NCBI GenBank assembly: GCA_902798745.1
Contig: CADBXM010000007.1
Span: 11,317 to 75,316 of the forward strand
Source of the DNA: an uncultured Eubacteriales bacterium
GTDB lineage: Bacteria > Bacillota > Clostridia > Peptostreptococcales > Anaerovoracaceae
Reading direction: 5' to 3'
Length of the DNA stretch: 64,000 bases
Shown here: one piece after another, positions 6,748-38,252 of the stretch
How the letters are laid out: each line of letters starts with the position of its first letter
Position numbering within the stretch: position 1 is the stretch's first letter
Notes under the pieces: model-generated
The model's input: only the letters and a program-made list of their open reading frames with translations
The model's database searches: none
What the model was told of the DNA's origin: nothing
Position numbers and translations under genes: made by a program

Positions 6748-9330
6748 ATGGCAAAAACATCATTTCTATGGAGGGTCGGTAGATCCATTAAGGCGATGAT
6801 AGCCAATGATGAGACGGCTAGCACAGAAAAAAGAATAGAATTCTCGAAGCAGCAGGTTGAGAAGCGAGATCAGAAAAAGAAACAGGGTTTCAAGCAAGCA
6901 GGTTATGAAAAAATGATGCAGGGCGTAGAACTCTCCAAGGACGATCTCAAGGACAAGGCTGATCACTTTAGGGATATGAACGTTGTTGGATTCAGCGTCT
7001 ATCGTTTCAGAGCATCAGGACTTTACAAGATGACTGACGAGGAGGCTTGCAAAAGGCTGAGCTTGATGAAGCAGTCAATACGACTTGACAAGGATCTCAG
7101 ATGGGACTTCAGGCTTCTTGATGAGGGCAAGCTTACATATGACGATGTCATGGAGAAAATCAATGACTTCAAATTGCTTGAGTCAGAGATAATGACCCCT
7201 GAGGCAAAAAGGGATATAGCAAACAAGGCAGGCTATCTTCACCCTGAGAATATGAGCGACGAGCAGATCAGCGATGTTGCGGTAGACATGGAGTTTACAA
7301 GGCGCATCCTCAGATATAGCCATAGCGGCTATGTATCGTTCCGCTTTTATGATAAGACGATCCCTGAAAGAAGAGAGTTCATATCAGGCAAAGAAAGATT
7401 GCTTCTGCTCAATACCATGAACACCGACGAAAGTATCGCGGTGCTTGACGACAAGCTGATGACATACGAGAAGCTGCGTGAGCATTATGGCCGCGACATG
7501 ATCAGTGTAGGGAGCGAGAAGGACTGGTTCAGGTTCAAAGCTTTCTTTGAAAACAACGATACAGGCGTAATAAAACCTCGCTTTGATTCCTTGGGCAAAG
7601 GCATCAAATTGCTGCGTAAATCCGATATGAGCAATATGCGGGAGACCTTCCTGGAGCTGATCGACGAGTACAGGCGATTCCTGATGGAGGGTTATATCAA
7701 CGCGGCTGAAGAGATCAAGGCGCTAAACCCGGATTCCGTAAACACGGTGCGTATAATCGCTTATTTCGATGGAAAAGATACATCGATCCGAAGCGCCTCA
7801 ATGAGGATAGGCAAGGCCGGCTCATTTGTTGACAACGCGGGAGCCGGAGGCATCACCGTTGCGATCGACAGGGAAACCGGAATGATCGACAGTGACGGCT
7901 GCGATGAAAACGGATTCATATACGATAAGCACCCTGATACAGGGATCACCTTCAAGGGTTACCAGCTGCCGGCTTGGGAGAAAGCTCTTGCGGTGGTTTA
8001 TGATGTGTCCGGAAAGATAGAAGGCGCGAAGTATGTAGGCTGGGATCTCGCATGCACTTCCGACCACGAGTGGGTCATTGTCGAGGCCAATGGTAAGACC
8101 GGATTCTTCGGCGCGCAGGCTCCTCATGACAAGGGACGCCGCAAAGAATTCCTCAACACCATAGGAGCTGATCCTAGAGGAGCTATACGTGATGAAGTGG
8201 TATTCAGGACCGCGGCGAGGATCGCGAAGAGATATGAGCTTGACGAAGAGGAGCTTGTGGAAAAGATAAGGCATTTCGAGTCTATGGGGCTTGATGGGCG
8301 CTGGTTTGAGGACAATTGCGCATGGGATCTTACCGATGACGAGATACTCGAGCTGAAAAAGGTCATTGAAGCCGATACAGAGGCCGGAGAAAAACGTGAT
8401 AGCGAAATGTTTGCGTCCATCTGCAGCACATCGGGTCTGGACGAGGATACTGTAAAGCACAAATATCATCTTGCTAAGCTGCATGGTTACGATGTGGATT
8501 GCTTCCTCACGAACGGGATCTATCTGCTGAGTGATGAAGACATCAAATCTCAGGTATTTTTCAACAGGGCAGATGGCATCACAAGATTCCAGCGAAGGCG
8601 CAAGGAAGAGGCTATGAATGCTTTACATTCCATGCTTGGGCTGTCATATGGGCGTTATAGTCTCAATGAAGCAGAAGCAGCTCTTAAATGTGGATGCTCG
8701 CTTGATGAGTACGTGTTATACGGCATTTATGACAAGAACGGGGACGAAGCTGCGGGATTCTGCACCAATGACTTTATGCGCAGGATATGGACAGCGAACG
8801 CAACCGGCTATGAGAGCAGCAGGAAATTGCTTGAGGAAAGGCATTCTGATGCCGGAGCTATGCCGTTCGGAGATCTTACTGATGAACTCGAGAGTATAAA
8901 GCTGAACGACCGGAAGAGACTCCATATCGTCACAGCTACGCAGGGTGGAAATACAGAAGTCGTAATGGCTGCCTTCAGCGAAGGAAGCGATCAGACATGG
9001 ACGGGAAAAGGATTCTCTGCGGGAGTAGATGTTGAGACCGGAAAGATCGAGACCGAAAGAGTCAATGGTTACGGAGAAAGATTTGAAGAACGCAGAAGTA
9101 AGGACGCATCCAAGGGGGATGATGTACCTCTCTGGAAAGAAGCTGCTTCTAAATGCACTTCAGAGGCGCAGAAATATCCGGAACTGACATTCATGAAATG
9201 GGAAGTGGATGTTACAGGAGATACTGCGGATCTGAAAGCGGCCGGTCCGGTGTTTGATGTACATGTCATACAGATGCCATATGCCTTTGAAGGCATTGGA
9301 TTAAGGAACAGATTCGAGAAATACCTTTAG
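6748..9330 (+). CDS. ATPgrasp_ST-like protein (long form: one intact ATP-grasp core plus a degenerate C-terminal second copy)
   Basis: AAGGAGA ribosome-binding site. Core: LNPDSVNTVRIIAYFDG...GSFVDNAGAGGITVAIDRETGMIDSDGCDE...KYVGWDLACTSDHEWVIVEANGKTGFFGAQ. The C-terminal stretch GFSAGVDVETGKIETERVNGYGERF... looks like a partial second core. Confidence 0.75.
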   Translation: MAKTSFLWRVGRSIKAMIANDETASTEKRIEFSKQQVEKRDQKKKQGFKQAGYEKMMQGVELSKDDLKDKADHFRDMNVVGFSVYRFRASGLYKMTDEEACKRLSLMKQSIRLDKDLRWDFRLLDEGKLTYDDVMEKINDFKLLESEIMTPEAKRDIANKAGYLHPENMSDEQISDVAVDMEFTRRILRYSHSGYVSFRFYDKTIPERREFISGKERLLLLNTMNTDESIAVLDDKLMTYEKLREHYGRDMISVGSEKDWFRFKAFFENNDTGVIKPRFDSLGKGIKLLRKSDMSNMRETFLELIDEYRRFLMEGYINAAEEIKALNPDSVNTVRIIAYFDGKDTSIRSASMRIGKAGSFVDNAGAGGITVAIDRETGMIDSDGCDENGFIYDKHPDTGITFKGYQLPAWEKALAVVYDVSGKIEGAKYVGWDLACTSDHEWVIVEANGKTGFFGAQAPHDKGRRKEFLNTIGADPRGAIRDEVVFRTAARIAKRYELDEEELVEKIRHFESMGLDGRWFEDNCAWDLTDDEILELKKVIEADTEAGEKRDSEMFASICSTSGLDEDTVKHKYHLAKLHGYDVDCFLTNGIYLLSDEDIKSQVFFNRADGITRFQRRRKEEAMNALHSMLGLSYGRYSLNEAEAALKCGCSLDEYVLYGIYDKNGDEAAGFCTNDFMRRIWTANATGYESSRKLLEERHSDAGAMPFGDLTDELESIKLNDRKRLHIVTATQGGNTEVVMAAFSEGSDQTWTGKGFSAGVDVETGKIETERVNGYGERFEERRSKDASKGDDVPLWKEAASKCTSEAQKYPELTFMKWEVDVTGDTADLKAAGPVFDVHVIQMPYAFEGIGLRNRFEKYL

Positions 9331-10250: not shown

Positions 10251-11076
10251 CAGTCTCCTCCTCCCTTTCCTTGAACTTGCATGTTTCCGAAACTATCCTG
10301 TACTCGGTGACCTTATCCGAGGTGCCTATGAACCTGAGGTGCATGTTCTCATCGATATCGGCGTCAGTGATATAAACAGAAGACGTTTCTTTGACTTTTC
10401 CCGACGCATCAAGCAGCTCTACCTCCAAGTCCAGATATTCAATACCAAGTCCCGATTCGTTCTTCAGTTCAGCGTCATAATGGCTCACGTTGCCTTCGTC
10501 AGTCCTTTTGAACGAAAGGTTGTCTGTCGCATTGAGAAGCCACCCCTGAGCAAGGATATACGCAGACTCATCGGCATACTGTTTTTTGTCGGGTGTAAAA
10601 TGAAAGTCGCCATTATGCATTTTGTAGAGGACCTTCAGTCTGCGGCCGTAAGGCTCCGAGAAGGCGTTCCAGAATGCGTCCGGCTCTGTGGCAGGATCAT
10701 ATTGTGACGCCGCTTGCTGGCATGCCTTTATCGCCGAAATGTATTCGCTTGCGAGGCGGGAGAGCTCGTCATCTTTATAGTTCTTGTTCGCATATCTGGA
10801 AACAGCTTCCATTTCAATATCTATGAACGCTGTGTCTGTGATACGCCCGGTGGTCTGCAGCTGCAACTCATTAACGGGGAGGTCCCAGCCTTCATAAAGG
10901 GCGTACTCGACGCTTCTCGGGAAGCTCCTGTCTATGCTTGTCATAGTAAGCAGTGTGGCGACTTCGGCAGCGATGATGACGATAGAGACGAATATGACTA
11001 TTAAAAGAACGCGCCGCTTGGAAACGCGCTTCTTCTGTTGCTCTTCATATTCATTTTTATACCTGTCCATCCTCAT
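10240..11076 (-). CDS. N-terminally membrane-anchored protein of unknown function, co-transcribed with the 9348 hydrolase gene
   Basis: A basic N-terminus is followed by one transmembrane helix (VLLIVIFVSIVIIAAEVATLL) and an approximately 230-aa extracytoplasmic domain. A GGAGG ribosome-binding site is present. I recognised no known family. Confidence 0.55.
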   Translation of the reverse strand: MRMDRYKNEYEEQQKKRVSKRRVLLIVIFVSIVIIAAEVATLLTMTSIDRSFPRSVEYALYEGWDLPVNELQLQTTGRITDTAFIDIEMEAVSRYANKNYKDDELSRLASEYISAIKACQQAASQYDPATEPDAFWNAFSEPYGRRLKVLYKMHNGDFHFTPDKKQYADESAYILAQGWLLNATDNLSFKRTDEGNVSHYDAELKNESGLGIEYLDLEVELLDASGKVKETSSVYITDADIDENMHLRFIGTSDKVTEYRIVSETCKFKEREEETDEA

Positions 11077-11231
11077 TTAACGGATCAGACCTCCACTTTG
11101 TATGACTGCCCGGCAAACCTTGTCAGGCTTTGTTGCATCAGCTGTAATTATAGGAGATACCATGCGGACAAACAAGGTAAATTTATGCTTCTGAGACGAC
11201 AGTTTCGATTGGCGCCTGAGACCGCGGTCTG

Positions 11232-11260
11232 TTGATTTTGCATATGATACATATTAGAAT
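11232..11260 (+). promoter_or_regulatory. Candidate sigma-70 promoter for the 11324 ATP-grasp gene
   Basis: TTGATT (11232-11237), a 17-nt spacer, then TAGAAT (11255-11260). Confidence 0.35.
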
Positions 11261-11323
11261 ATATCATGAAGAAAAACGTAATCTGACAGGCTCCCAAGCA
11301 GGAGAAAATACGATAAAAACAAT

Positions 11324-12946
11324 ATGGCAAGAGTATCATGGCTCTGGAGAATAGGACGATCGGTGAAGGCGCTCTTCGTGAATGACGAGAAAGCCGGTAC
11401 AGCCGAGAGGATCGAATTTTCACAGAAGCAAGTAGACAGGCGTGACAGAAAAAAGAAAAGAGGCATAAAGCAGAGCGGATATGAAGAGATGATGCAGGAT
11501 TCCGGTCTGACGCAAAGCGAACTTGATGAAAAGCTCGCTCGTTTTCGTGCGATGGATATCACGCATCTTAGCTTCTACAGATTCAGGGCCAACGGCTTTT
11601 ATAAAATGACCGATGAAGAGGCTGCAGAAGCTCTTCGTGGTATGAAGAGATCAGTAGAGATCGAAGAGGATCTCAAGTGGGACTTCAGGCAGATCGATCT
11701 CGGTAAAAAGAGTTATGAGGAAGTGCAGCCACGAATAGATGAGCTGAAAGAGCTTGAATCGAGGCTCATGACGCCTGCGGCCAAGAAAGAGATCGCCATG
11801 AAGGCCGGGTATCTGCACCCTGAGGATATGAATGAGGAGCAGATCGACAATGTCGCGATGGACATGGAATTTACCAGGCGCATACTCAGGTACAGCCACA
11901 ATGGATATGTAGAATTCCACTTTTTCGAGAAGTCTATTCCCGAGAGGCGTGAATTCATAAACGGTCATGAGAGAAGGATGCTGCTCCCTCTGGTCAATAC
12001 AGATGAGAGTATCGCCATACTCGATGACAAGCTGATGACATATGAGCGCCTTAAGGACTGGTTTGGCCGCGATATGGTCAACATAGGCAGCGAGAAGGAC
12101 TGGTTCAGGTTCAAAGCGTTTTTCGATAACAACGAGACCGCTGTGATAAAGCCGAGGTTCGACTCCCTCGGCAAGGGCATAAAGCTGATCCGCAAGTCAG
12201 AGATAAAAAACATGCGCAAGACTTTTATCGAACTGATAGATGACTACCGCAGGTTCCTTATGGAAGGTTTCATCGATGCAGCCGATGAGATAAAGGCGCT
12301 CAATCCCGACTCGGTGAACACTGTGCGCATCATCGCGTACTACGATGGAAAAACCACATCGATCAGAAGCGCATCGATGAGGATAGGCAGGTCGGGATCT
12401 TTCGTGGATAACGCAGGTGCCGGAGGAATCACTGTTGCGATCGACAGGGAAACGGGAATGATCGACAGCGACGGCTGCGACGAGAGAGGCTTCAGATATG
12501 AAAAGCATCCCGATACCGGCATCAGATTCAAAGGCTATCAGCTGCCGAAATGGGACAAGGCCCTTGAGACGGTATATAACGTTGTGGACAAGATAGAAGG
12601 GGCCAAATATGTTGGTTGGGATCTTGCCTGCACTTCAGACTACAGATGGGTCATTGTAGAAGCTAACGGCAAGACCGGGTTCTTCGGAGCGCAGGCTCCT
12701 CACGACCTGGGACGACGCAGAGAATTCCTTAACACCATCGGAGCTGATCCAAAAGGCGCGCTATATGAAGAGGTGGCGCTTAAGATGGCGCAGAGAGTCA
12801 AGGAAGAATATGGCATTCCTGAAGAGGAGACCATGGAAAAACTAAGACACTTTGAATCGCTGGGTCTCGACGGTCGCTTGTTTGAGCGGAACCGCGCGTG
12901 GGAGCTCACGGATGAAGAGTGTATAAGCAGATTCAGCAAACTGTAA
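11324..12946 (+). CDS. ATPgrasp_ST-like protein (short form: ends after the first post-core helical module)
   Basis: The stretch GSFVDNAGAGGITVAIDRETGMIDSDGCDE is identical to the 6748 paralog. The conserved leader MARVSWLWRIGRSVK... is present. The protein has one ATP-grasp core. Confidence 0.75.
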   Translation: MARVSWLWRIGRSVKALFVNDEKAGTAERIEFSQKQVDRRDRKKKRGIKQSGYEEMMQDSGLTQSELDEKLARFRAMDITHLSFYRFRANGFYKMTDEEAAEALRGMKRSVEIEEDLKWDFRQIDLGKKSYEEVQPRIDELKELESRLMTPAAKKEIAMKAGYLHPEDMNEEQIDNVAMDMEFTRRILRYSHNGYVEFHFFEKSIPERREFINGHERRMLLPLVNTDESIAILDDKLMTYERLKDWFGRDMVNIGSEKDWFRFKAFFDNNETAVIKPRFDSLGKGIKLIRKSEIKNMRKTFIELIDDYRRFLMEGFIDAADEIKALNPDSVNTVRIIAYYDGKTTSIRSASMRIGRSGSFVDNAGAGGITVAIDRETGMIDSDGCDERGFRYEKHPDTGIRFKGYQLPKWDKALETVYNVVDKIEGAKYVGWDLACTSDYRWVIVEANGKTGFFGAQAPHDLGRRREFLNTIGADPKGALYEEVALKMAQRVKEEYGIPEEETMEKLRHFESLGLDGRLFERNRAWELTDEECISRFSKL

Positions 12947-12967
12947 AAGAGAGGAGACAGACCGGAA

Positions 12968-13402
12968 ATGACAATAGGATATACGACAGGAGTTTATGAT
13001 CTGTTCCACATAGGACATCTGAATCTTCTGAAAAACGCCAAGGGCATGTGTGACAAGCTCATAGTAGGCGTGACGGTGGACGAACTTGTCGAGTACAAGG
13101 GCAAACAGGCAATGATCCCGTTTGAGGACAGGATAGAGATCGTCAGGAGCATCAAATACGTAGACGCGGCGGTCCCTCAGTATGACATGGACAAGCTTGC
13201 TGCATGCAAAAAGCTTGGAGCAACATACCTCTTTGTCGGCGATGACTGGTATGCCACAGAGAAATGGCAGGAATACGAGAAAGAATTCAACAAAGAAGGT
13301 ATCAAGATCATCTACTTCCCTTACACAAAGGGCGTATCCTCGACAAAGATATCGGAAGCGTTGAAGGCGGTCCGCAAGTCTTCTCTGCAGGATGTGAAAT
13401 AA
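12968..13402 (+). CDS. tagD: Glycerol-3-phosphate cytidylyltransferase
   Basis: GYTTGVYDLFHIGHLNLLKNAK (HxGH motif) and YTKGVSSTKI (RTxGISTT-like motif). The protein is 144 aa. A GAGAGGAGA ribosome-binding site is present. Confidence 0.85.
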   Translation: MTIGYTTGVYDLFHIGHLNLLKNAKGMCDKLIVGVTVDELVEYKGKQAMIPFEDRIEIVRSIKYVDAAVPQYDMDKLAACKKLGATYLFVGDDWYATEKWQEYEKEFNKEGIKIIYFPYTKGVSSTKISEALKAVRKSSLQDVK

Positions 13403-13418
13403 ACTCAAGGAGAGCCGG

Positions 13419-14456
13419 ATGACAGTCGACCCTGTTTATTGCGCAAGCTCGTTCTTTCAATTCAGGATGATAGAAGACGACGATCACATATTTGCGCCGG
13501 GTGTTTACCCGCGCCGTTTTGACATACCCGAAGGAAGGACTCCCGTGCACGACAGCACAGAGCTTGAGGTAGCGCTCAAGGCATCCGTAGACAAAGATCT
13601 TAAGAGCGGAAAATGCGCGCTTATGCTGAGCAGCGGCATAGACTCAGCCATACTGGCTCGTATGATGCCGCGCGGCACCAAGGCTTACACACTGAGATGC
13701 TGCGCTCCGGGAGCTGTCGATGAGACGTCCCAGGCAGCGCGCTACGCCGAGATATGCGGTCTCGACCATGAGATAATAGACATCACATGGGACGATTATG
13801 TCAGATATACACCGGGGCTTCTCAGACATATGGGGCAGCCTGTGCATTCCATAGAGCCCCAGATACATAAGGCGGCTCTTACAGCAAAAGCTGCCGGCTA
13901 TGATACGCTGATCTTCGGCGAGACGGCCGATATTATATACGGCGGACACAGCATACAGCTTTGCAGAGAATTTGAGCTGGACGAGTACATAGTTTATCAC
14001 AATTTCATAGATCCGCGAGTAGTACTGAAAGAAGGCGTCATAATAAGGGAACCTTACGAAAGACATTTTGTGAACGGCAGGATGGACGTATACGGTTTTC
14101 TGAACGATGTGCATCTGAGGCAGTCGCCTAATTCGTATGTCGACGCATGTTCTCTTGCGGATATCAGATTCTCGGCGCCTTATCTCACTACGGAACTGGC
14201 GGCTCCTCTCGACCTTGCCCGTATCCGCGCAGGTGAAAACAAGTACCTTGTCAGAGAGTTGTTCCACAGGCTCTATCCCGATATGGGGCAGCCGAAGAAA
14301 CTCCCTATGCCACGGGCGCTGGAACAGTGGATGGCGGATTATCCGGGGGCATCGAGGCCCGAGTTTTATCCCGGAGCGGGAAGGGATATGAGCCCCGACC
14401 AGAAATGGTACGTTTACATAACTGAAATGTTTATGAACATGGTATTGGACAAATAG
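13419..14456 (+). CDS. Asparagine-synthetase-C-terminal-domain-like (PP-loop adenylating) enzyme without a glutaminase domain
   Basis: ALMLSSGIDSAILARMM is an SGGxDS-type PP-loop. The 345-aa length leaves no room for the N-terminal Ntn glutaminase domain. An AAGGAGA ribosome-binding site is present. Confidence 0.55.
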   Translation: MTVDPVYCASSFFQFRMIEDDDHIFAPGVYPRRFDIPEGRTPVHDSTELEVALKASVDKDLKSGKCALMLSSGIDSAILARMMPRGTKAYTLRCCAPGAVDETSQAARYAEICGLDHEIIDITWDDYVRYTPGLLRHMGQPVHSIEPQIHKAALTAKAAGYDTLIFGETADIIYGGHSIQLCREFELDEYIVYHNFIDPRVVLKEGVIIREPYERHFVNGRMDVYGFLNDVHLRQSPNSYVDACSLADIRFSAPYLTTELAAPLDLARIRAGENKYLVRELFHRLYPDMGQPKKLPMPRALEQWMADYPGASRPEFYPGAGRDMSPDQKWYVYITEMFMNMVLDK

Positions 14457-14488
14457 CTCAAAGCAGGTCCTTTACCGGGGAGACGGAA

Positions 14489-17308
14489 ATGGCAAAAACG
14501 TCACTGCTTTGGAGAATAGGGAGATCAGCCAAAGATGCCTTGTTCGATATTGAAAGAGCCGGCACGGAAAAGCGGATAAAATTCTCTCGGAAGCAGGTAA
14601 AGAGAAGAGACAGCAAAAAGAAGAAACGGATCGATGATGCCGGGTTCGAGCTCATGACCGCAGACAGCGGTCTCACAAGGAAAGAGCTCGAGGACAAGGC
14701 TTCTCAATTCCGTACTTTTGGCATATGTGATTTCAGCAATTACGAATTCAGGGCGTATGGCCTGTACAAAATGGACGATGAGCAGGCGAAGAAAACGCTC
14801 GCTTTTAAGAAGTCTGCGGATCAGCTCGAAGAAGACCTGAACTGGGATTTCAGACTTATCGATTTCGGCAAACTGACATATGAGGACGTGTCTGACAAGA
14901 TACAGCAGTTCAAGGACAATGTATCCCATCTCCTCACTATGGACGCCAAGAAGGAGGTCGCGCTCAAGGCCGGATACCTTCATCCAGAAAACATGAGCGA
15001 TGAAGAAATCGACGATCTCGTAAGAGATATGGAATTCACAAGGTGCATACTTCAGTTTGGTCACGGGGAATATGCAAGGTTCCATTTTAAGGATAAGTCG
15101 ATCATCGAAAGGCGTGGATTCGTTTCTGACCGCGAAAGGAACCGACTGCTGTCCGCTGTCAATAGTGATACGAGCATAGCCGTGTTCGATGACAAGATGA
15201 TGACGTATGAAAAGCTGTCTGAGTTCTACGGACGCGATATGATAAGCGTCAACAGCGAGAAAGATTATTTCAAGTTCAGAAACTTCTTTGAAAAAAACGA
15301 AAAGGCTGTTATTAAACCGAGATTTGATTCGCTCGGCAAAGGAATAAAACTGATCAATAGGTCGGAGATCGACAACTACGGTAAATATTTTCTTGGACTC
15401 GTTGATGAATACCGTCGCTTTCTCATGGAGGGATTCATCGAAGCTGCCGATGAGATCAAAACGCTCAATCCCGATTCCGTCAACACAGTACGTGTGATCG
15501 CTTACTATGACGGGAAGAATACATCGATCAGAAACAGCTCCATGAGAATAGGGCACGCCGGATCCTTTGTGGATAACGCGGGCGCCGGAGGGATCACAGT
15601 CTCCGTGGACAAGGAAACCGGAGTCATCAATAGCGACGGATGTGATGAGAATGGTTTCAGATATGAAAAACATCCCGACACAGGAGTCACACTGAAGGGA
15701 TATCAGCTGCCGGCGTGGGACAAAGCCCTTGAAGTGGTTTACGCAGTGTCGGGAAGGATAGAAGGAGCCAGGTATGTCGGCTGGGACCTTGCCTGCACAG
15801 CAGACCATGAATGGGTGTTAGTAGAGGCAAACGGAAAGACAGGCTTCTTCGGAGCGCAGGCACCTTACGGTAAGGGGAGAAGAAGTGAGCTCCTTGAGAC
15901 GATAGGCGCAGATCCGAGGGGAGAACTATACAACGAGGTAGCCCGCAGGATGGCAAAGAAAGTTCGCGATGCGAACAAGATACCTGTAGAAGAGACCATG
16001 GACAGACTCTCGCACTTTGAGAGCCTTGGTTTGGACGGACGCTATTACAGGCCATATCGCGCGTGGGAACTCAGCGACGCGGAGTGCCTTGAACTAAAAG
16101 AGGCGCTTGAAGGAAGAGAAGCATACGGAAAGAAGAGAGAGCAGGACGTCTGCAGGCTGATATCCGCTAAATACGGACTCGATGAAGAGGATGTGAGAAG
16201 AAAGTACAGACTTGCTCTGAAGGAAGGATATAAAGAATTCTGGTTCCTTGCCGACGGCATCTTTATGCTGACAGATGATGAGATAAAGGCTCATACACAT
16301 CTTCGGGTCTCAGAAGCCGAAGATGACTGGGAAAGAGATAAGAAAAAGAAGCTGAACGAGATAAAAAAGAAAATCAGGGAGAAAAAACACTGGAGCAAAG
16401 GAAAGTACTCGCTTGAACAGTTGAAAGCCCGCAATAATTGCGGATGCGCCGCGGATGAGTTCATCGTTATGAGGATGTATGACAGATCCCCTGAAGAAGC
16501 TCGAAAATTCATCACGGCCGAAGTCAAGCACAAAGCATGGCTGATAAACGCCTGCACATATGAAGACAGCATGAAGCTTCGCAGCAAGATCAGCTTCAGC
16601 GATACCTTCAGCGAGTTTACGGATCGCATAGTTTTCTCCAACAGAGACATATCGCTTGATGACTTCGAAGAAAAGATCAAAGGCTTGGAGCAAATCGTCT
16701 ATAAGCCTGAAGAGGGCGACAAAGGCCTGGGAATTAAACGGTTCCATGTTAATGGCGCTCCGGAGGAAAACAAGGCGGTTTATGAGTCGCTGATGTCTCT
16801 GGAGCCGGGCGTTGTAGAAGAGTTTCTCTATCAGCATCCGGATATGGCCGCATTCTATCCTGATGCAGTCAATACAGTCAGAGTTATCACCGCTCTTAAG
16901 GACGACAAAGCGTGCGTTGTGATGGCGGCGCTTAGGACCGGGCGATATGGGAACACGGACAACTGGTCGCAGGGAGGCTTGTCTGCAGGGATCAACGTAA
17001 AGACAGGGACGATCGAGACCGACGGAGTGGATCAATACGGAGAGCGCTATGCAGATCATCCGGTGACCGGAAAAACATTCTTTGGCGCTAAGATACCCGA
17101 ATGGGATAAAATAGAAAGAAATTGTTGCGAGGCGGCAAGAAAGTGTCCGGACATCCCGCTTATTGGCTGGGATGCTGCTGTGCTGAGAGACGGGAGAGTC
17201 GTTCTTATCGAAGGAAATCTGTCGTTTGGAACTAAATCGATACAGACTCCGTTTTCTCTGGCTGATGTCGGCCTGAGGGAGCGCTTTGAGCAGTTCCTGC
17301 AGCAGTAA
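14489..17308 (+). CDS. ATPgrasp_ST-like protein with two apparently intact ATP-grasp cores
   Basis: Core 1: LNPDSVNTVRVIAYYDG...GSFVDNAGAGGITVSVDKETGVINSDGCDE...RYVGWDLACTADHEWVLVEANGKTGFFGAQ. Core 2: YPDAVNTVRVITALKD...NWSQGGLSAGINVKTGTIETDGVDQYGERYADHPVTG...IPEWDK...LIGWDAAVLRDGRVVLIEGN. Confidence 0.75.
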   Translation: MAKTSLLWRIGRSAKDALFDIERAGTEKRIKFSRKQVKRRDSKKKKRIDDAGFELMTADSGLTRKELEDKASQFRTFGICDFSNYEFRAYGLYKMDDEQAKKTLAFKKSADQLEEDLNWDFRLIDFGKLTYEDVSDKIQQFKDNVSHLLTMDAKKEVALKAGYLHPENMSDEEIDDLVRDMEFTRCILQFGHGEYARFHFKDKSIIERRGFVSDRERNRLLSAVNSDTSIAVFDDKMMTYEKLSEFYGRDMISVNSEKDYFKFRNFFEKNEKAVIKPRFDSLGKGIKLINRSEIDNYGKYFLGLVDEYRRFLMEGFIEAADEIKTLNPDSVNTVRVIAYYDGKNTSIRNSSMRIGHAGSFVDNAGAGGITVSVDKETGVINSDGCDENGFRYEKHPDTGVTLKGYQLPAWDKALEVVYAVSGRIEGARYVGWDLACTADHEWVLVEANGKTGFFGAQAPYGKGRRSELLETIGADPRGELYNEVARRMAKKVRDANKIPVEETMDRLSHFESLGLDGRYYRPYRAWELSDAECLELKEALEGREAYGKKREQDVCRLISAKYGLDEEDVRRKYRLALKEGYKEFWFLADGIFMLTDDEIKAHTHLRVSEAEDDWERDKKKKLNEIKKKIREKKHWSKGKYSLEQLKARNNCGCAADEFIVMRMYDRSPEEARKFITAEVKHKAWLINACTYEDSMKLRSKISFSDTFSEFTDRIVFSNRDISLDDFEEKIKGLEQIVYKPEEGDKGLGIKRFHVNGAPEENKAVYESLMSLEPGVVEEFLYQHPDMAAFYPDAVNTVRVITALKDDKACVVMAALRTGRYGNTDNWSQGGLSAGINVKTGTIETDGVDQYGERYADHPVTGKTFFGAKIPEWDKIERNCCEAARKCPDIPLIGWDAAVLRDGRVVLIEGNLSFGTKSIQTPFSLADVGLRERFEQFLQQ

Positions 17309-17346
17309 AACGGACACGAATACATAACATATAGAGGCAGAGGGGA

Positions 17347-18183
17347 ATGACAGAAACACAGAAAGTCATACTTGATATTTTCAAAATCACCGCAGACATC
17401 TGCGAGAGGCACGATATACCGTACTTTGCAATAGGCGGCACCTGCCTTGGCGCGGTCCGCCACAAAGGATTCATTCCCTGGGATGATGACATAGATATAG
17501 CGATACCGATACAGCACTTTGATGAATTCTGGGACATCGCCGAAAAGGAATTGCCTCCGGGATATGAGACGTATACGTGCAAAAAAGTAAGGACATACGA
17601 TAAGATCTTCGGAAAGATCCACAATACGGAGACCGCATATATAGAGACAAAAGAGATCGGATACTATAAGGCCTATAAAGGGATTTTTGTCGATATCATG
17701 CCGATCTCGGCGATACCCGACACTGGGGCTGAAAGAGAAGCCTTTTATGATAGTGTGCTGAATTATAAAAAGCTGAACTATTACCGGAGATTCCCATACA
17801 AGGTGGTTCAGTCGAAGCGCAAAAGGACAAGGCTCAAATGGATGCTCATGAGAGTGGCCGGCATGTTCGGCGGATTCGACTATTATTCCGATAAGTGGAT
17901 GGACCTGCTGCGTGCCCATCCTTTTGGCAGCTCATCTCTGACAGGGTATTCGTGGTCCAAAAACATCAGAAAATACACCTTCCCGGCAGACTGTTTCGCA
18001 AATACAGTCGATATGCCATTTGAAGATACAACTATCAAATGCCCGGCGCTTTACGACAAGTATCTGACTCTTCAGTTCGGTGATGACTACATGGAATTGC
18101 CACCTGAAGAAAAGCGGGCGCCACATCGCACTGAAGTGGTAGATGTGAATAAGTCGTACAAGCAATACATACCGTCAAAGTAA
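17347..18183 (+). CDS. LicD-family phosphotransferase (polyol-phosphate / phosphocholine transferase family)
   Basis: YFAIGGTCLGAVRHKGFIPWDDDIDIAIP is the diagnostic LicD nucleotidyltransferase-fold motif. A GAGGGGA ribosome-binding site is present. Confidence 0.8.
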   Translation: MTETQKVILDIFKITADICERHDIPYFAIGGTCLGAVRHKGFIPWDDDIDIAIPIQHFDEFWDIAEKELPPGYETYTCKKVRTYDKIFGKIHNTETAYIETKEIGYYKAYKGIFVDIMPISAIPDTGAEREAFYDSVLNYKKLNYYRRFPYKVVQSKRKRTRLKWMLMRVAGMFGGFDYYSDKWMDLLRAHPFGSSSLTGYSWSKNIRKYTFPADCFANTVDMPFEDTTIKCPALYDKYLTLQFGDDYMELPPEEKRAPHRTEVVDVNKSYKQYIPSK

Positions 18184-18209
18184 CGGTCGATCATCAAAGG
18201 AGAAGACGC

Positions 18210-19013
18210 TTGTTCAAACTTCTGATCAGAGTGATACAAGAGAATATTACGTACTTTCCACAGACACTGCGTCTGGCCAGGATAGATATGAAGAGGGCCC
18301 ACATGACTTCTGATCTAGGCTTTTTCTGGGCTATCATGAAGCCGCTCATGTACCTTGTGATGTTCTATCTTGCCATCTCAGCCGGATTTAAAGGCGGCCA
18401 TGACTTAAAGGGGACTGTGTGTCCATACTTCATTTGGCTCGCGGCCGGTATCGTTCAGTGGCAGTTCATCTCAAGCCTGTTGGTTGCGGGAGCAGGCTGC
18501 TACAACAGAAAGAAAAACGTGATCAAGAGTGTAAAATTCCCGTTGTCTACGATCCCGATGATAGAGGTGATGTCAAAGTTTTTCGTATATTTGATCATGA
18601 TCGGCATCCTTATGATTATGTGCGTATTCATGGGCGTGATGCCGAGCATATACTGGCTTCAGTTACCTATATACATAATTCTTACTGTGATATTCCTGTA
18701 TATATGGGTCATGATGACCTCGATGATGAGCATAATCAGTGTCGATATACTTGAGTTTCTCAAAACCATCAATACGGCGTTCTTTTGGCTATCGGGGATC
18801 CTCTTCAACGTCAAAGGGCGTACGAGCCCGTTCTTTACTTATAATCCTATAAGCTATCTGGCAGAAGGCTTTAGAAACACATTCGCATACCATATATGGA
18901 TATGGGAGGAGAAAAGCCTGTTTCTGCATTTCGTTATCGTATTGTTCGTACTGACGCTGATATCAAGCCTTCTTTTCAGAAGAATGGAGAAGCGTATACC
19001 GGAGATACTGTGA
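18210..19013 (+). CDS. tagG: ABC-2 type polymer-export permease (TagG-like)
   Basis: A six-TM-like hydrophobic profile. FWAIMKPLMYLVMFYL...VKFPLSTIPMIEV is typical of ABC-2 / TagG permeases. It has a TTG start 8 nt after AAAGGAGAA and lies directly upstream of the ATPase gene. Confidence 0.7.
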   Translation: MFKLLIRVIQENITYFPQTLRLARIDMKRAHMTSDLGFFWAIMKPLMYLVMFYLAISAGFKGGHDLKGTVCPYFIWLAAGIVQWQFISSLLVAGAGCYNRKKNVIKSVKFPLSTIPMIEVMSKFFVYLIMIGILMIMCVFMGVMPSIYWLQLPIYIILTVIFLYIWVMMTSMMSIISVDILEFLKTINTAFFWLSGILFNVKGRTSPFFTYNPISYLAEGFRNTFAYHIWIWEEKSLFLHFVIVLFVLTLISSLLFRRMEKRIPEIL

Positions 19014-19021
19014 GGCCATAA

Positions 19022-19846
19022 ATGAGTGGAGATAATATTGCCATTAGGGTAAAGCACGTAAAAAAAACGTACAGGCAGTACAAAACAAACATGCAGAAGA
19101 TCCGATTCCTCCTTCTTATGAGAGATGCAGGGACAAAAGACGAGGTCTTGAAGGATGTTTCATTTGACATAAAAAAAGGAGAGAAGGTCTGCATACTGGG
19201 CTATCAGCAATCGGGAAAGACAACTCTAATGCGCATACTCGCCAGAGTCATCAGACCTGATTCAGGCAAGGCCAGGATATACGGTGAGATCGCGCCTATT
19301 CTGGATGTGAGGCTTGGTTTTGACGGCGCAATGACCGGGAAAGACAACTACATAAGGATGAGCTCTGCCCTCGGACGTTCAGAAAAAGATATTAAAGAGC
19401 TCGAGGACAGCGTGTTTGCATTTGCAAGACTAAGCAAAGTTAAAAACGAACCCATCAAAACATATCAAAAGGGGGCTGCCACCAGACTGGGCTTCTCTAT
19501 TGCGACGGCTAAAAAGAGCGATGTGGTATTGTTTGACAGTGGGCTTGCGTTCGGAACAAAGGCTTGGAACGATGCCTGCATGGAGAGGCTGAAAGAGTTG
19601 ATATCGGGCGATACCACTTTTGTGATGACGGCTAGCAAGGCGAAGGTCGCTGCACAGCTGTGTGAGCGCGGGATAGTGCTTCACGAAGGACGAGTCGTCT
19701 TCGATGGAGCGCTTGAAGATGCCGCTTCATATTTCCGAAAGAACTGCAGACAACATAAAACCAAACTCGACGACGATGTTCCTGAGGAGCCGGCGACCGA
19801 ACAGCCGGCTCAGGCAGATACAGATGATGAGGGCGTTGAATTCTAG
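19022..19846 (+). CDS. tagH: TagH-like ABC ATPase subunit with degenerate catalytic motifs
   Basis: The layout and fold match TagH, and Walker A is retained (GYQQSGKTT). The signature reads YQKGAATRLGFS, Walker B reads VVLFDSG (no DE), and the H-loop region reads FVMTASK (no His). See the corresponding finding. Confidence 0.65.
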   Translation: MSGDNIAIRVKHVKKTYRQYKTNMQKIRFLLLMRDAGTKDEVLKDVSFDIKKGEKVCILGYQQSGKTTLMRILARVIRPDSGKARIYGEIAPILDVRLGFDGAMTGKDNYIRMSSALGRSEKDIKELEDSVFAFARLSKVKNEPIKTYQKGAATRLGFSIATAKKSDVVLFDSGLAFGTKAWNDACMERLKELISGDTTFVMTASKAKVAAQLCERGIVLHEGRVVFDGALEDAASYFRKNCRQHKTKLDDDVPEEPATEQPAQADTDDEGVEF

Positions 19847-19918
19847 AGTTCATGTTGATCAAACAAGCAGTCTGATCTAAGGATAAGGGCAGAGGATCGA
19901 CTATTTAGGTGAAACACA

Positions 19919-19957
19919 GAAGGGGACAGATCACAATGATCGTCCCCTTCTTTCTTG
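19919..19957. terminator. Hairpin terminator between convergent genes
   Basis: GAAGGGGAC (19919-19927), a 14-nt loop, GTCCCCTTC (19942-19950), followed by TTTCTTG. Confidence 0.5.
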
Positions 19958-19981
19958 TCATTTAGTAATGCTGATTATTTG

Positions 19982-21169
19982 TCAGTCATCGTCGTCATCG
20001 TCGTGATCATCATGATCATCATCGTCGTTGTCATCGTCATCGTCTCTGTCATCGTGATCATCAATATCATCGTGATCGTCGTCATCGTCATCACGGTCGT
20101 CGATGTCATCGTCTCGATCATCATCCTGAACATGACCATTGCTGACTTCTGCCCGTTCAACATCAGAAGATACGATCGTGCCGCTGGAAGCATCTATGTC
20201 ATACTCGTATTCCATGCCTCCGCTATTGAATTCGATCTCATAGATGATGATCCCATTCTCGCAGTCAAACTCTGTCCGGATGTTCGATGCGGCGTCTGCG
20301 CTTATTCCCGCGTCTGCAAGTGCAGCCGCGATTGCTGTGTCCTCACCGATATAACTGCTGGTGTCTGCGCTTCCATATGTGAGCTCGTTTTCTGCATTGC
20401 GGCTCTGTCCCAGAAGGATCAGTTCCTGTGTGGACAATCCCAGCAGATCATCTTCGGTCATCTTGGTACTGCCGGTATTCAGCAGGCTGCGGATCAGATT
20501 TGCCTTTCCCACTGATATGCCCTTTGATTCGGCAAATGCAGTCAGCTCTGCATCCTTGTCAACGTATTGGGCGAGTATGGCCGGCGTTATGGAAGAATCC
20601 TTAAGGTAGGAATTGAGATTCGTCGAGATCTCCTGTTCCATCTTTTTGCCTTTATCCGGGTCCTTCGACTGTACTGACATCAGTATTGAATTAGACGTGT
20701 CTGAAAGATATCCGCGGGTAAGCATAGCTCCGGTGACCGCATAGCAGGCCGTATTTATATCGGTTCCTTTGAGGGACAGATCGTTCAGTATTTCCTCACC
20801 CTCGCTGTTCAGCGCCGAGGCGCCGGTCACCTTTTCCTTGCTGTTTATGGTAAATTCTATCGCAGGGTTCACGTCCATTCCGACAACAGCAAATGCGCTG
20901 TTTATACTGCGGAACACCGCCATACCTCCCACGAACAGCACCAGAACTGCAGCGATGCTTAACAGCGGCTTGAGCACTCTGCCGCTTATTCTGCCGCCGG
21001 TAGAGGAAGGTTTTACGTATATTGAGTGATCCTCCTCAAGCAGCTTATCGCCGAGGCTCTTTTGAGGAGCCTTGTCCAGCGAAAGCTCTGCAAGCAGATC
21101 GTCGAGCATGTCCGGGGTATTCTGTTCGACAGCCTGGGCGAGACGCCTTTTAAGTTCTTTATCTGTCAT
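19982..21169 (-). CDS. Membrane-spanning putative anti-sigma factor with a C-terminal PepSY-like domain and an Asp/His-rich tail
   Basis: The ATG overlaps the stop of the upstream ECF sigma gene (an alternative start is at 21190). One transmembrane helix is present (LLSIAAVLVLFVGGMAVF). A PepSY-like stretch follows (IGEDTAIAAALADAGISADAAS...IIYEIEFNSGGMEYEYDIDASSGTIV), and the tail is about 48 aa of D/H/R. I saw no ZAS motif, so the function is inferred from position. Confidence 0.55.
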   Translation of the reverse strand: MTDKELKRRLAQAVEQNTPDMLDDLLAELSLDKAPQKSLGDKLLEEDHSIYVKPSSTGGRISGRVLKPLLSIAAVLVLFVGGMAVFRSINSAFAVVGMDVNPAIEFTINSKEKVTGASALNSEGEEILNDLSLKGTDINTACYAVTGAMLTRGYLSDTSNSILMSVQSKDPDKGKKMEQEISTNLNSYLKDSSITPAILAQYVDKDAELTAFAESKGISVGKANLIRSLLNTGSTKMTEDDLLGLSTQELILLGQSRNAENELTYGSADTSSYIGEDTAIAAALADAGISADAASNIRTEFDCENGIIIYEIEFNSGGMEYEYDIDASSGTIVSSDVERAEVSNGHVQDDDRDDDIDDRDDDDDDHDDIDDHDDRDDDDDNDDDDHDDHDDDDDD

Positions 21170-35681: not shown

Positions 35682-36931
35682 GCATCACACAGATATTCAG
35701 AAAAACGATTTTTGACATAGCCAAGAAGAACAAAGCGTTCCGCATTGCTTTCAGGAAGAGCAGGGATGCCGCTTACAGTGTCAAAATGATACTGGACGAT
35801 CCTTTCGGGAAGATAGACGACAAGCTGGTCTACTTCCAGACTTTCTCGGGACGCGGCTACAGCGATTCGCCTAAGGCTATGTATGAATACATGCTGAGCG
35901 CGCCGGAATATAAGGATTACCGCTTCGTGTGGAGTTTCAAGGAACCCGAAAAATTCAGCTTTCTGCTTCAGAACGGCCGGACGGAAATCGTAAAGTTCCG
36001 CACACGCGCGGATAACATAGCTCTTCGCACGGCAAAGTACTGGATCACAAACTACCGCATGCTTGACCACCAGCTGCCGCGAAAGGGACAGATATACCTT
36101 CAGTGCTGGCATGGGACTCCGCTCAAGAGGCTCGGATACGATATCAAAGAGGGCGACAATGTAATGAACTCGCTGTCTGAGGTGAGAGAAAAATACAGGA
36201 GCGACGCAAAGCGTTTCGCCTATCTTCTTTCGCCTTCGCCGTTCGCGACCGAAAAATTTGCCACGGCATGGAACCTGATCGAGACGGGTCAGACGCACAA
36301 GATAATAGAGGAAGGCTATCCGCGCAATGACAGGCTCATCAACACTACTGAAGAAGAGCGCAGGGAGATAAGGAAGCAGCTGGGCGTAGACGATAAAAAA
36401 GTCATACTTTATGCTCCGACCTGGCGCGACAACCAGCACACGAGCGGGCAGGGCTACACCTACAAAACTGAGGTGGATTTTGACAAACTTCAGAAGGAGC
36501 TCGGTGGGGAATACGTGATACTGTTCCGCGCTCACTACCTTGTAGCCAACAGCTTTGACTTCAGCAAATACCCGGGCTTCGTTATCGACATGAGTTCTTA
36601 TGGCGACATAAACGAGCTCTACATAGCATCCGACCTGCTTGTGACCGATTACTCGAGCACATTCTTTGACTACGCGAATCTTAAAAAACCGGTCATCTTC
36701 TACATGTATGACCTTGAAGAATATGCCGGAGAGCTGCGAGGATTCTATCTTTCGCTAGACGAGCTCCCGGGACCGATCGTCAGAGACGAACAGAGCCTGA
36801 TAGATGAGGTGAGAGCGTGCTATGGCAGGCAGCCTGATGAGAAATACGAAGCATTCAGCAAGAGATTCAATCCGCTGGATGATGGCCACGCTTCGGAGCG
36901 TGTCCTGAAGAGGATAATGGAAAATGCTTGA
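35678..36931 (+). CDS. CDP-glycerol/ribitol polyol-phosphate transferase (TagF/TarF family)
   Basis: ...VYFQTFSGRGYSDSPKAMYEYM...LQCWHGTPLKRLGYD...ILYAPTWRDN...LLVTDYSSTFFDYANLKKPVIFYMYDLEEY...GFYL...LPGPIV. Confidence 0.8.
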   Translation: MSITQIFRKTIFDIAKKNKAFRIAFRKSRDAAYSVKMILDDPFGKIDDKLVYFQTFSGRGYSDSPKAMYEYMLSAPEYKDYRFVWSFKEPEKFSFLLQNGRTEIVKFRTRADNIALRTAKYWITNYRMLDHQLPRKGQIYLQCWHGTPLKRLGYDIKEGDNVMNSLSEVREKYRSDAKRFAYLLSPSPFATEKFATAWNLIETGQTHKIIEEGYPRNDRLINTTEEERREIRKQLGVDDKKVILYAPTWRDNQHTSGQGYTYKTEVDFDKLQKELGGEYVILFRAHYLVANSFDFSKYPGFVIDMSSYGDINELYIASDLLVTDYSSTFFDYANLKKPVIFYMYDLEEYAGELRGFYLSLDELPGPIVRDEQSLIDEVRACYGRQPDEKYEAFSKRFNPLDDGHASERVLKRIMENA

Positions 36932-38252
36932 CGCGATATCGAGACTTCTTGAAAGAACAAGAAATATCTCGCGAAGCGCTTACATCTGGAATACTGTGAG
37001 CGCGATGATGCTCGCGCTGCAGGGACCGGTGATCCAGGCGGTGGTGAGCAGGACAAACGGAGCTACCGACTTCGGTATCATTTCGATTGCCTTTTCCGCC
37101 GCGACCCTCATTATGTATGTGGGCCAGTACGGACTAAGAAGATTTCAGGCTTCGGACGTAAAAGAGCAATTCAGCTTTGAAGAGTATCACGGCATGCGTG
37201 TCGTGACATGCTTGCTGATGATAGTTGCCAGCTTCGTATTCTGCGCTTACGGCATGGCCTTCAAAGGCTATTCTTCTTTCAAGTTTGCAGTCGTGTTTAC
37301 GATATGCATTCTGAAGATGATAACCGCGTATTCCGATGTGTATCACGGAAACATGCAGCAGAAGGGCCGTTTCGACGTAGCGTCAAAGTCAACGGCGATA
37401 CGTTATACAGCTGAGATAATCATATTTTGCGTTATAGTTGCGATCACGCGCGACTTGCTGATATCCGCGCTGGTAACCGTTGTGAGCTCAGCGGTCATGA
37501 TGGCATTGCTGTCTATGAACGCGGGCAGCCACTACTGCAAATCGCTTAAACCGGTCTTCAAAAAGTCTGCTATAAGGGGACTGTTTATCGAAGGCTTCCC
37601 GCTGTTTGTGGGGATGTTCCTTAACACCTACGTGAGCAATGCGCCGAGATACGCGATAGATACATATCTGACCGATGATGTGCAGGCGGTGTTCTCTTCG
37701 ATATTCATGCCTGTGTTCGTCGTACAGGTCGCGTCCCAGTTCATCTTTTACCCGCTGATCACATCGTACGCGCACATGTGGAGCAAAGAAACGCTGGACA
37801 CATACAACGCGTTTGTCAAAAGGATATACAAGATGAGCGGGCTCGTTATCGGACTTGCTGTTCTGGGCCTTGTTGTCGCGGCTACTATAGGCATACCGGT
37901 GCTTTCCCTTATCTTCAAGCTGGATCTTACACCGTATAAAAAAGAGCTGATGATAATAATGCTGGGCGGAGGGCCGCTGGCATTCTCTGTCTACTTCAGC
38001 ACTATAATAGCGATAATACGCGCGCAGAAAAGCCTGATAGTCTGTTATGGAGTGACATCCGTGATGGCTTTGGCGCTGTCGGGCGTGTTCGTGAAGGGGC
38101 ACGGGATAACAGGAGCGTCCTGGATGTACGCATTGCTCATGACAGTACTGGCGCTGTCTCTTTTCGTAGCAATGCTGATCAGAATGAAGAAACAGAGACG
38201 GGATCTGACAAAAACAGAAGCTGGCTATGAGGCCGGTGATTTGGTACAATAG
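36924..38252 (+). CDS. Polysaccharide/teichoic-acid flippase-like polytopic membrane protein (MOP/Wzx-type)
   Basis: A 442-aa protein with about 12 or more hydrophobic segments, overlapping the preceding tagF-like gene by 8 nt. The assignment rests on topology and context rather than on a diagnostic motif. Confidence 0.5.
   Translation: MLDAISRLLERTRNISRSAYIWNTVSAMMLALQGPVIQAVVSRTNGATDFGIISIAFSAATLIMYVGQYGLRRFQASDVKEQFSFEEYHGMRVVTCLLMIVASFVFCAYGMAFKGYSSFKFAVVFTICILKMITAYSDVYHGNMQQKGRFDVASKSTAIRYTAEIIIFCVIVAITRDLLISALVTVVSSAVMMALLSMNAGSHYCKSLKPVFKKSAIRGLFIEGFPLFVGMFLNTYVSNAPRYAIDTYLTDDVQAVFSSIFMPVFVVQVASQFIFYPLITSYAHMWSKETLDTYNAFVKRIYKMSGLVIGLAVLGLVVAATIGIPVLSLIFKLDLTPYKKELMIIMLGGGPLAFSVYFSTIIAIIRAQKSLIVCYGVTSVMALALSGVFVKGHGITGASWMYALLMTVLALSLFVAMLIRMKKQRRDLTKTEAGYEAGDLVQ

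Follow-up and report, generated by a model that had tools for sequence, protein, structure and literature searches.

The systems closest to the locus described here are the TagGH/TarGH exporters, solved from S. aureus (9cfl/9cfp) and A. herbarius (6jbh) together with B. subtilis TagH (7dd0), and the Wzm-Wzt O-antigen/galactan exporters (A. aeolicus 6m96/8dl0; mycobacterial 9qhw). The gate helix takes part in substrate handling in both TarGH and WzmWzt. The translocation mechanism of TarGH has been called unclear (PMC11971408). Each ATP site of an ABC transporter combines Walker A, Walker B and the His of one chain with the signature of the other (PMC7756269). Asymmetric ABC transporters (TM287/288, TAP, CFTR, ABCG5/G8) show loss of the catalytic Glu, loss of the His, an altered signature and a Walker A Lys to Arg exchange (PMC7756269), but these changes are limited to one composite site and the other is kept working. 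The literature that we searched on degenerate or hydrolysis-free TagH/Wzt-type exporters, mostly outside subscription journals, described no dead TagH or Wzt, and that on Mogibacterium teichoic acids contained nothing relevant.

The DNA analysed here, a stretch of 64,000 nucleotides (the window), carries a permease and ATPase-fold gene pair of the TagGH/TarGH kind. The TagG-like permease (18210..19013, + strand; 267 aa, TTG start), whose best solved match is S. aureus TarG (E 2.7e-27), ends 8 nt ahead of an ORF of 274 aa (19022..19846, + strand) that has a TagH/Wzt-fold nucleotide-binding domain predicted to be unable to hydrolyse ATP, and which we call pseudo-TagH. Close homologues are labelled Mogibacterium, family Anaerovoracaceae, and the runs that match best are metagenomes of the bovine gut. 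As in TagGH/TarGH systems, the pair sits among TagF/TagD/TarIJ/LicD genes, so that pseudo-TagH adjoins a TagG/Wzm permease inside a wall-polymer cluster. Pfam and NCBIfam assign the upstream genes on the same strand (11324..18183, +) to ATP-grasp proteins (starting at 11324 and 14489), a TagD-like cytidylyltransferase (12968), an Asn-synthase-like protein (13419) and LicD (17347). This gene order is the one that precedes a canonical tagG-tagH pair in another genome (G023), and pseudo-TagH carriers of other genera likewise occupy the canonical tagG-tagH slot. The GC content of the window's genes gave no sign of recent foreign origin, and a promoter and terminator scan of 11000-20100 stayed at chance level. 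The teichoic-acid cluster also holds three large ATPgrasp_ST paralogues with a common N-terminal region (6748-9330, 11324-12946 and 14489-17308), the 939-aa one having two ATP-grasp domains; such paralogues recur adjoining tagG-tagH across the family. At 50296-53079 a 927-aa fusion protein joins a YidC/60KD_IMP-like domain to an LtaS-like sulfatase domain; the same fusion is found in two canonical Mogibacterium loci.

The AlphaFold model of pseudo-TagH (pLDDT 84) has an intact ABC ATPase fold with an N-terminal gate helix, and its top fold matches are Wzt, TarH and TagH; the Wzm-Wzt exporters are the closest folds, with a TM-score of ~0.75-0.79 over ~233 residues, gate helix included. Formal alignment placed A. 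aeolicus Wzt, TarH and B. subtilis TagH as the closest solved sequences. Unlike Wzt, which itself has two consensus ATP sites, the protein has no carbohydrate-binding C-terminal domain. Its matches to PF00005 and to the best NCBIfam models (TagH/Wzt) were all under cut-off, with 111.8 bits against a required 320 for NF010066 and 120.7 against 400 for NF050108.

A preliminary description, made by eye, had proposed that nearly every catalytic motif of this protein except Walker A is lost. Alignment to the solved Wzt, TarH and TagH sequences bears out most of its details. Walker A is present, with GKT intact and Lys66 in place (19199..19225, +). The four residues that TagGH/TarGH systems keep for catalysis are all substituted: the ABC signature reads YQKGA for YSSGM (19463..19477, +), the catalytic Glu is Ser173 and the D-loop Asp is Thr179 (both within 19523..19558, +), and the H-switch His is Ser205 (19634..19636, +). 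The statement was nevertheless too broad, since the Walker B Asp172, the A-loop Tyr17 and the gate-helix region from Tyr20 to Leu32 (19070..19117, +; helix 23-32 in the AlphaFold model) are kept. It was also mistaken about the Q-loop, which had been located at residues 100-106 and described as having lost its Gln. The true Q-loop spans residues 93-100 (19298..19321, +), with Val96 at the Gln position; S. aureus TarH carries Ile92 there (PMC11971408), and all 93 canonical relatives have Leu. Because TagH/Wzt proteins normally have no Q-loop Gln, its absence is not degeneration and is a feature that the window pair has in common with TagGH/TarGH. A further difference from those systems is a disordered acidic C-terminal tail (19754..19843, +; residues 245-274, pLDDT <50).

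What do these substitutions mean for a dimer? Since both the elements supplied in cis (Glu, His) and the one supplied in trans (signature) are missing, pseudo-TagH would spoil both composite sites of any dimer that it enters. The substitutions resemble in kind those of the asymmetric transporters, but here one chain carries all the changes and both sites are affected. As first proposed, a homodimer would thus have no competent hydrolysis site. As far as sequence can tell, the residue pattern is that expected of a subunit able to dock, to gate and to bind nucleotide but not to split it.

This pattern is not peculiar to the window. Searches collected 63 full-length degenerate TagH proteins; those with a known genome come from four genera of Anaerovoracaceae, Mogibacterium among them. 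Compared with 93 canonical family proteins, the degenerate set has the H-switch His in 0/63 (canonical 93/93), the signature Ser in 1/63 (92/93), the catalytic Glu in 18/63 (93/93) and the D-loop Asp in 10/63 (93/93), counts that are partly circular because the distant members were chosen by motif loss; the closest 31 were gathered by similarity alone. No member has Glu and His together. The Walker B Asp is found in 61 of the 63 (93/93 canonical), an A-loop aromatic residue in 61, and a Walker A Lys or Arg in 62, of which 34 have Lys and 28 Arg; the 28 with Arg may be weak ATP binders as well. In the gate-helix region, position 20 is aromatic or His in 61/63, Asn23 is kept in 95% and Gln25 in 85%. 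The acidic tail is typical of the degenerate family, the last 25 residues having a net acidic charge of at least 5 in 52 of the 63 proteins.

It could be argued that pseudo-TagH still hydrolyses ATP slowly, or through unusual residues, at a rate sufficient for export. Walker A and the Walker B Asp are indeed kept, Glu persists in those 18 members, and within the subclade of the window protein the signature recurrently has a Lys and the H-switch an Asn or Lys. However, the signature, Glu and His positions vary freely across the family, no replacement catalytic residue common to its members was found, and the window protein has none of the four elements. We regard residual hydrolysis as quite unlikely.

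Some proteins stand near the border of the group. One TagH (G425, L281:5281-6932) is intermediate, being canonical but for the H-switch His and already having the acidic tail; its TagG has Ile at the seal position discussed below. Another protein (P0200), a partly degenerate TagH of 404 aa with an unannotated N-terminal extension of ~145 aa, branches near the base of the degenerate group. Tandem Wzt-Wzt fusions, some of about 520-530 aa and many others of ~800 aa (P0121, P0125, P0127; L035), were rejected as family members, as both of their domains are canonical. A related-locus search with the clade alignment returned generic Wzt/ABC matches only. No cultured carrier of pseudo-TagH was identified, and all the carriers traced are metagenome-assembled genomes (MAGs).

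Could the exporter simply be defunct, or the sequence an artefact? Both had been raised in the preliminary description, and both are now largely refuted and very improbable. Over 18774-19782 the window is matched with 0 differences by a contig that the same study obtained from another sample, and over 18951-19438, again with 0 differences, by one from a different study; these exact matches indicate that the sequence is not an assembly error. Contigs from RNA runs scarcely overlapped the two genes. Recent drift is equally hard to sustain, because the relatives are degenerate too and those at 26-66% identity remain full-length. Purifying selection has acted on both genes. Pseudo-TagH dN/dS was 0.07-0.17 (12 pairs) against 0.02-0.05 for canonical TagH (7 pairs), with many pairs near saturation and the least diverged pseudo-TagH pairs at 0.07, 0.10 and 0.16. 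The roughly 3-fold higher ratio would suit decay, yet it is far below 1. For TagG, the partners of pseudo-TagH gave 0-0.20 and canonical proteins 0.03-0.17; the window permease gave 0.056 against its closest genome relative, and one partner pair had 21 synonymous and 0 non-synonymous changes.

The degenerate group was recovered in the all-column tree with SH-aLRT 86-95. When the motif columns were removed, the degenerate set still stood apart from the canonical core (SH-aLRT 96), forming a polytomy with G425, G164 and P0200. A single origin is likely, and the pseudo-TagH family is an old group rather than the product of recent decay. Its carriers are scattered across the gyrB tree, which suggests that the wall-polymer cluster has been exchanged between lineages.

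All 58 canonical TagG proteins fall in one clade (support 100), and all 24 partners of pseudo-TagH lie outside it. The outer seal of S. aureus TarG is formed by Tyr51, Phe55, Phe189 and Tyr190 (PMC11971408). At the Phe55 equivalent, the window TagG has the aliphatic Ile56, and Ile, Met or Leu occupies this position in 24/24 partner proteins, compared with Phe in 93% of the 58 canonical ones; the other three seal equivalents stay aromatic. The same change occurs in two canonical Mogibacterium TagG proteins. It is probably one ancestral event and therefore a hint only. A complex model of the window TagG with pseudo-TagH, in which the latter lies on the coupling and interface helices of TagG, scored 0.61 against 0.00 for the best control, with at least 97% contact agreement between runs and partner pLDDT of at least 81. 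It passed the mark set for such models, which 58/80 solved pairs and 2/110 mismatched pairs also reached; as similar TarGH and WzmWzt complexes have been solved, this pass may express no more than likeness to known complexes.

If pseudo-TagH cannot hydrolyse ATP, a canonical ATPase encoded elsewhere might energise TagG, through a heterodimer or by exchange, with pseudo-TagH as a regulator. The preliminary description had suggested an asymmetric heterodimer of this kind and a search of the rest of the genome for a canonical paralogue. In the window's genome, which is 93% complete and holds six TagB/F-family genes and, like TagGH/TarGH hosts, LCP genes (two), neither a query with canonical TagH nor a scan for the motifs detected one. 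What the search found was a second tagG/pseudo-tagH pair, on contig C13 (L009:10880-12631), 60% and 46% identical to the window pair; this pseudo-TagH keeps the Glu, but its signature, D-loop Asp and H-switch His are gone. The C13 pair is ~7 kb from an LCP gene. Because a single contig of another genome (G080) holds the same two pairs at a distance of 55 kb, the window's contig (C7) and C13 probably adjoin within a large wall-polymer region. The degenerate type occurs in 15 genomes; in 12 of these, ten of them at least 90% complete, no canonical TagH or Wzt was found. One carrier (G446) is a single contig with four TagB/F genes, in which pseudo-TagH is the sole TagH type found and no partner ATPase with a consensus site was detected. 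On the other side, G415 (99% complete) combines the degenerate type with a second cluster that is canonical, and a canonical Wzm-Wzt of the rhamnan type is present in G078, but these canonical copies have their own permeases (a TagG in G415). A third carrier, G025, was not counted as a case of co-occurrence: it is 100% identical to G031 over 19.8 kb (L064 vs L070), a canonical contig, and in the gyrB region (L182 vs L178), and the bin looks chimeric. MAGs are incomplete, and an unrelated ABC-2 ATPase would be compatible with the sequence. Nevertheless, a subunit lacking Glu and His in an asymmetric heterodimer should keep a canonical signature, which the single signature Ser among the 63 contradicts, and pairing into a heterodimer would still leave no consensus site. 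We consider a borrowed ATPase improbable.

The main rival explanation, in our view rather unlikely, is that a Wzx/MOP-type flippase exports the polymer and that TagG and pseudo-TagH now do new, accessory work, for example as a scaffold for the TagF polymerases or as a sensor or holder of lipid-linked intermediates. A flippase candidate adjoining TagF-family genes is present in the window (36924..38252, + strand; PF01943, E 1e-6), and the clusters of the window's genome (G000) and of G080, G067, G012, G015, G071 and G446 contain Wzx-like genes. Three relatives (G007, G061 and G085) have TagF with an adjacent Wzx and no TagH match, and the new acidic tail of the family would suit an accessory job. 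However, the same Wzx type also adjoins canonical tagG-tagH (G031, G006, G066, G023, G084 and G266), which means that Wzx does not track degeneration. Moreover, in G108 (99% complete) and G406 (95%), where pseudo-TagH is the only TagH type alongside TagF-family genes, no Wzx-type flippase was found beyond MurJ/SpoVB- and MATE-sized matches. The normal constraint on the partner TagG also speaks against export by Wzx. Explanations other than those considered here receive hardly any weight.

The best reading, which we put forward tentatively, is a hydrolysis-independent export channel in which pseudo-TagH would serve as an ATP-binding scaffold, the option among those of the preliminary description that appears to fit best. 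TagG and pseudo-TagH would still form the exporter of a lipid-linked polyol-phosphate wall polymer, with translocation uncoupled from ATP hydrolysis. Pseudo-TagH would dock on TagG with nucleotide bound as a structural ligand, its gate helix kept for entry of the lipid-linked substrate, and the TagG channel may have a looser outer seal. From general bioenergetics, the polyanion could be driven outward by the inside-negative membrane potential, and the exported polymer trapped by LCP-catalysed transfer to peptidoglycan; LCP genes are present in 12/12 carriers tested. The loss of the hydrolysis residues together with retention of the ATP-binding residues and gate helix, the purifying selection, the co-inheritance with TagG and the lack of a detected canonical TagH in most carriers argue for hydrolysis-free export. 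Against it, the TarGH and WzmWzt systems studied are ATP-driven (PMC11971408, PMC13649706), and many carriers, the window's own genome among them, hold a Wzx-like gene in the cluster. TagGH also appears dispensable in the family, as several relatives with TagF genes give no TagH match. Two carriers, G081 (L074:9600-11247; 91% complete) and G455 (96%), have tagG/pseudo-tagH and no TagB/F match, either because contigs are missing or because the substrate is another one; this likewise counts against hydrolysis-free export.

In its fullest form, for which we claim somewhat less, the proposal is that a type V ABC polymer exporter may have been converted to a hydrolysis-free channel, the ATPase subunit acting as nucleotide-binding scaffold and gate while membrane potential and wall ligation drive export. 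A natural, long-conserved exporter with both sites dead would be a ready test of the part that ATP plays when TarGH and WzmWzt move long lipid-linked polymers, in particular of whether hydrolysis serves translocation or gating only. It comes with built-in controls, namely canonical relatives that occupy the same slot and the intermediate G425, in which only the His is lost. If the proposal is true, these Anaerovoracaceae would have a rare ABC system without a consensus ATP site.
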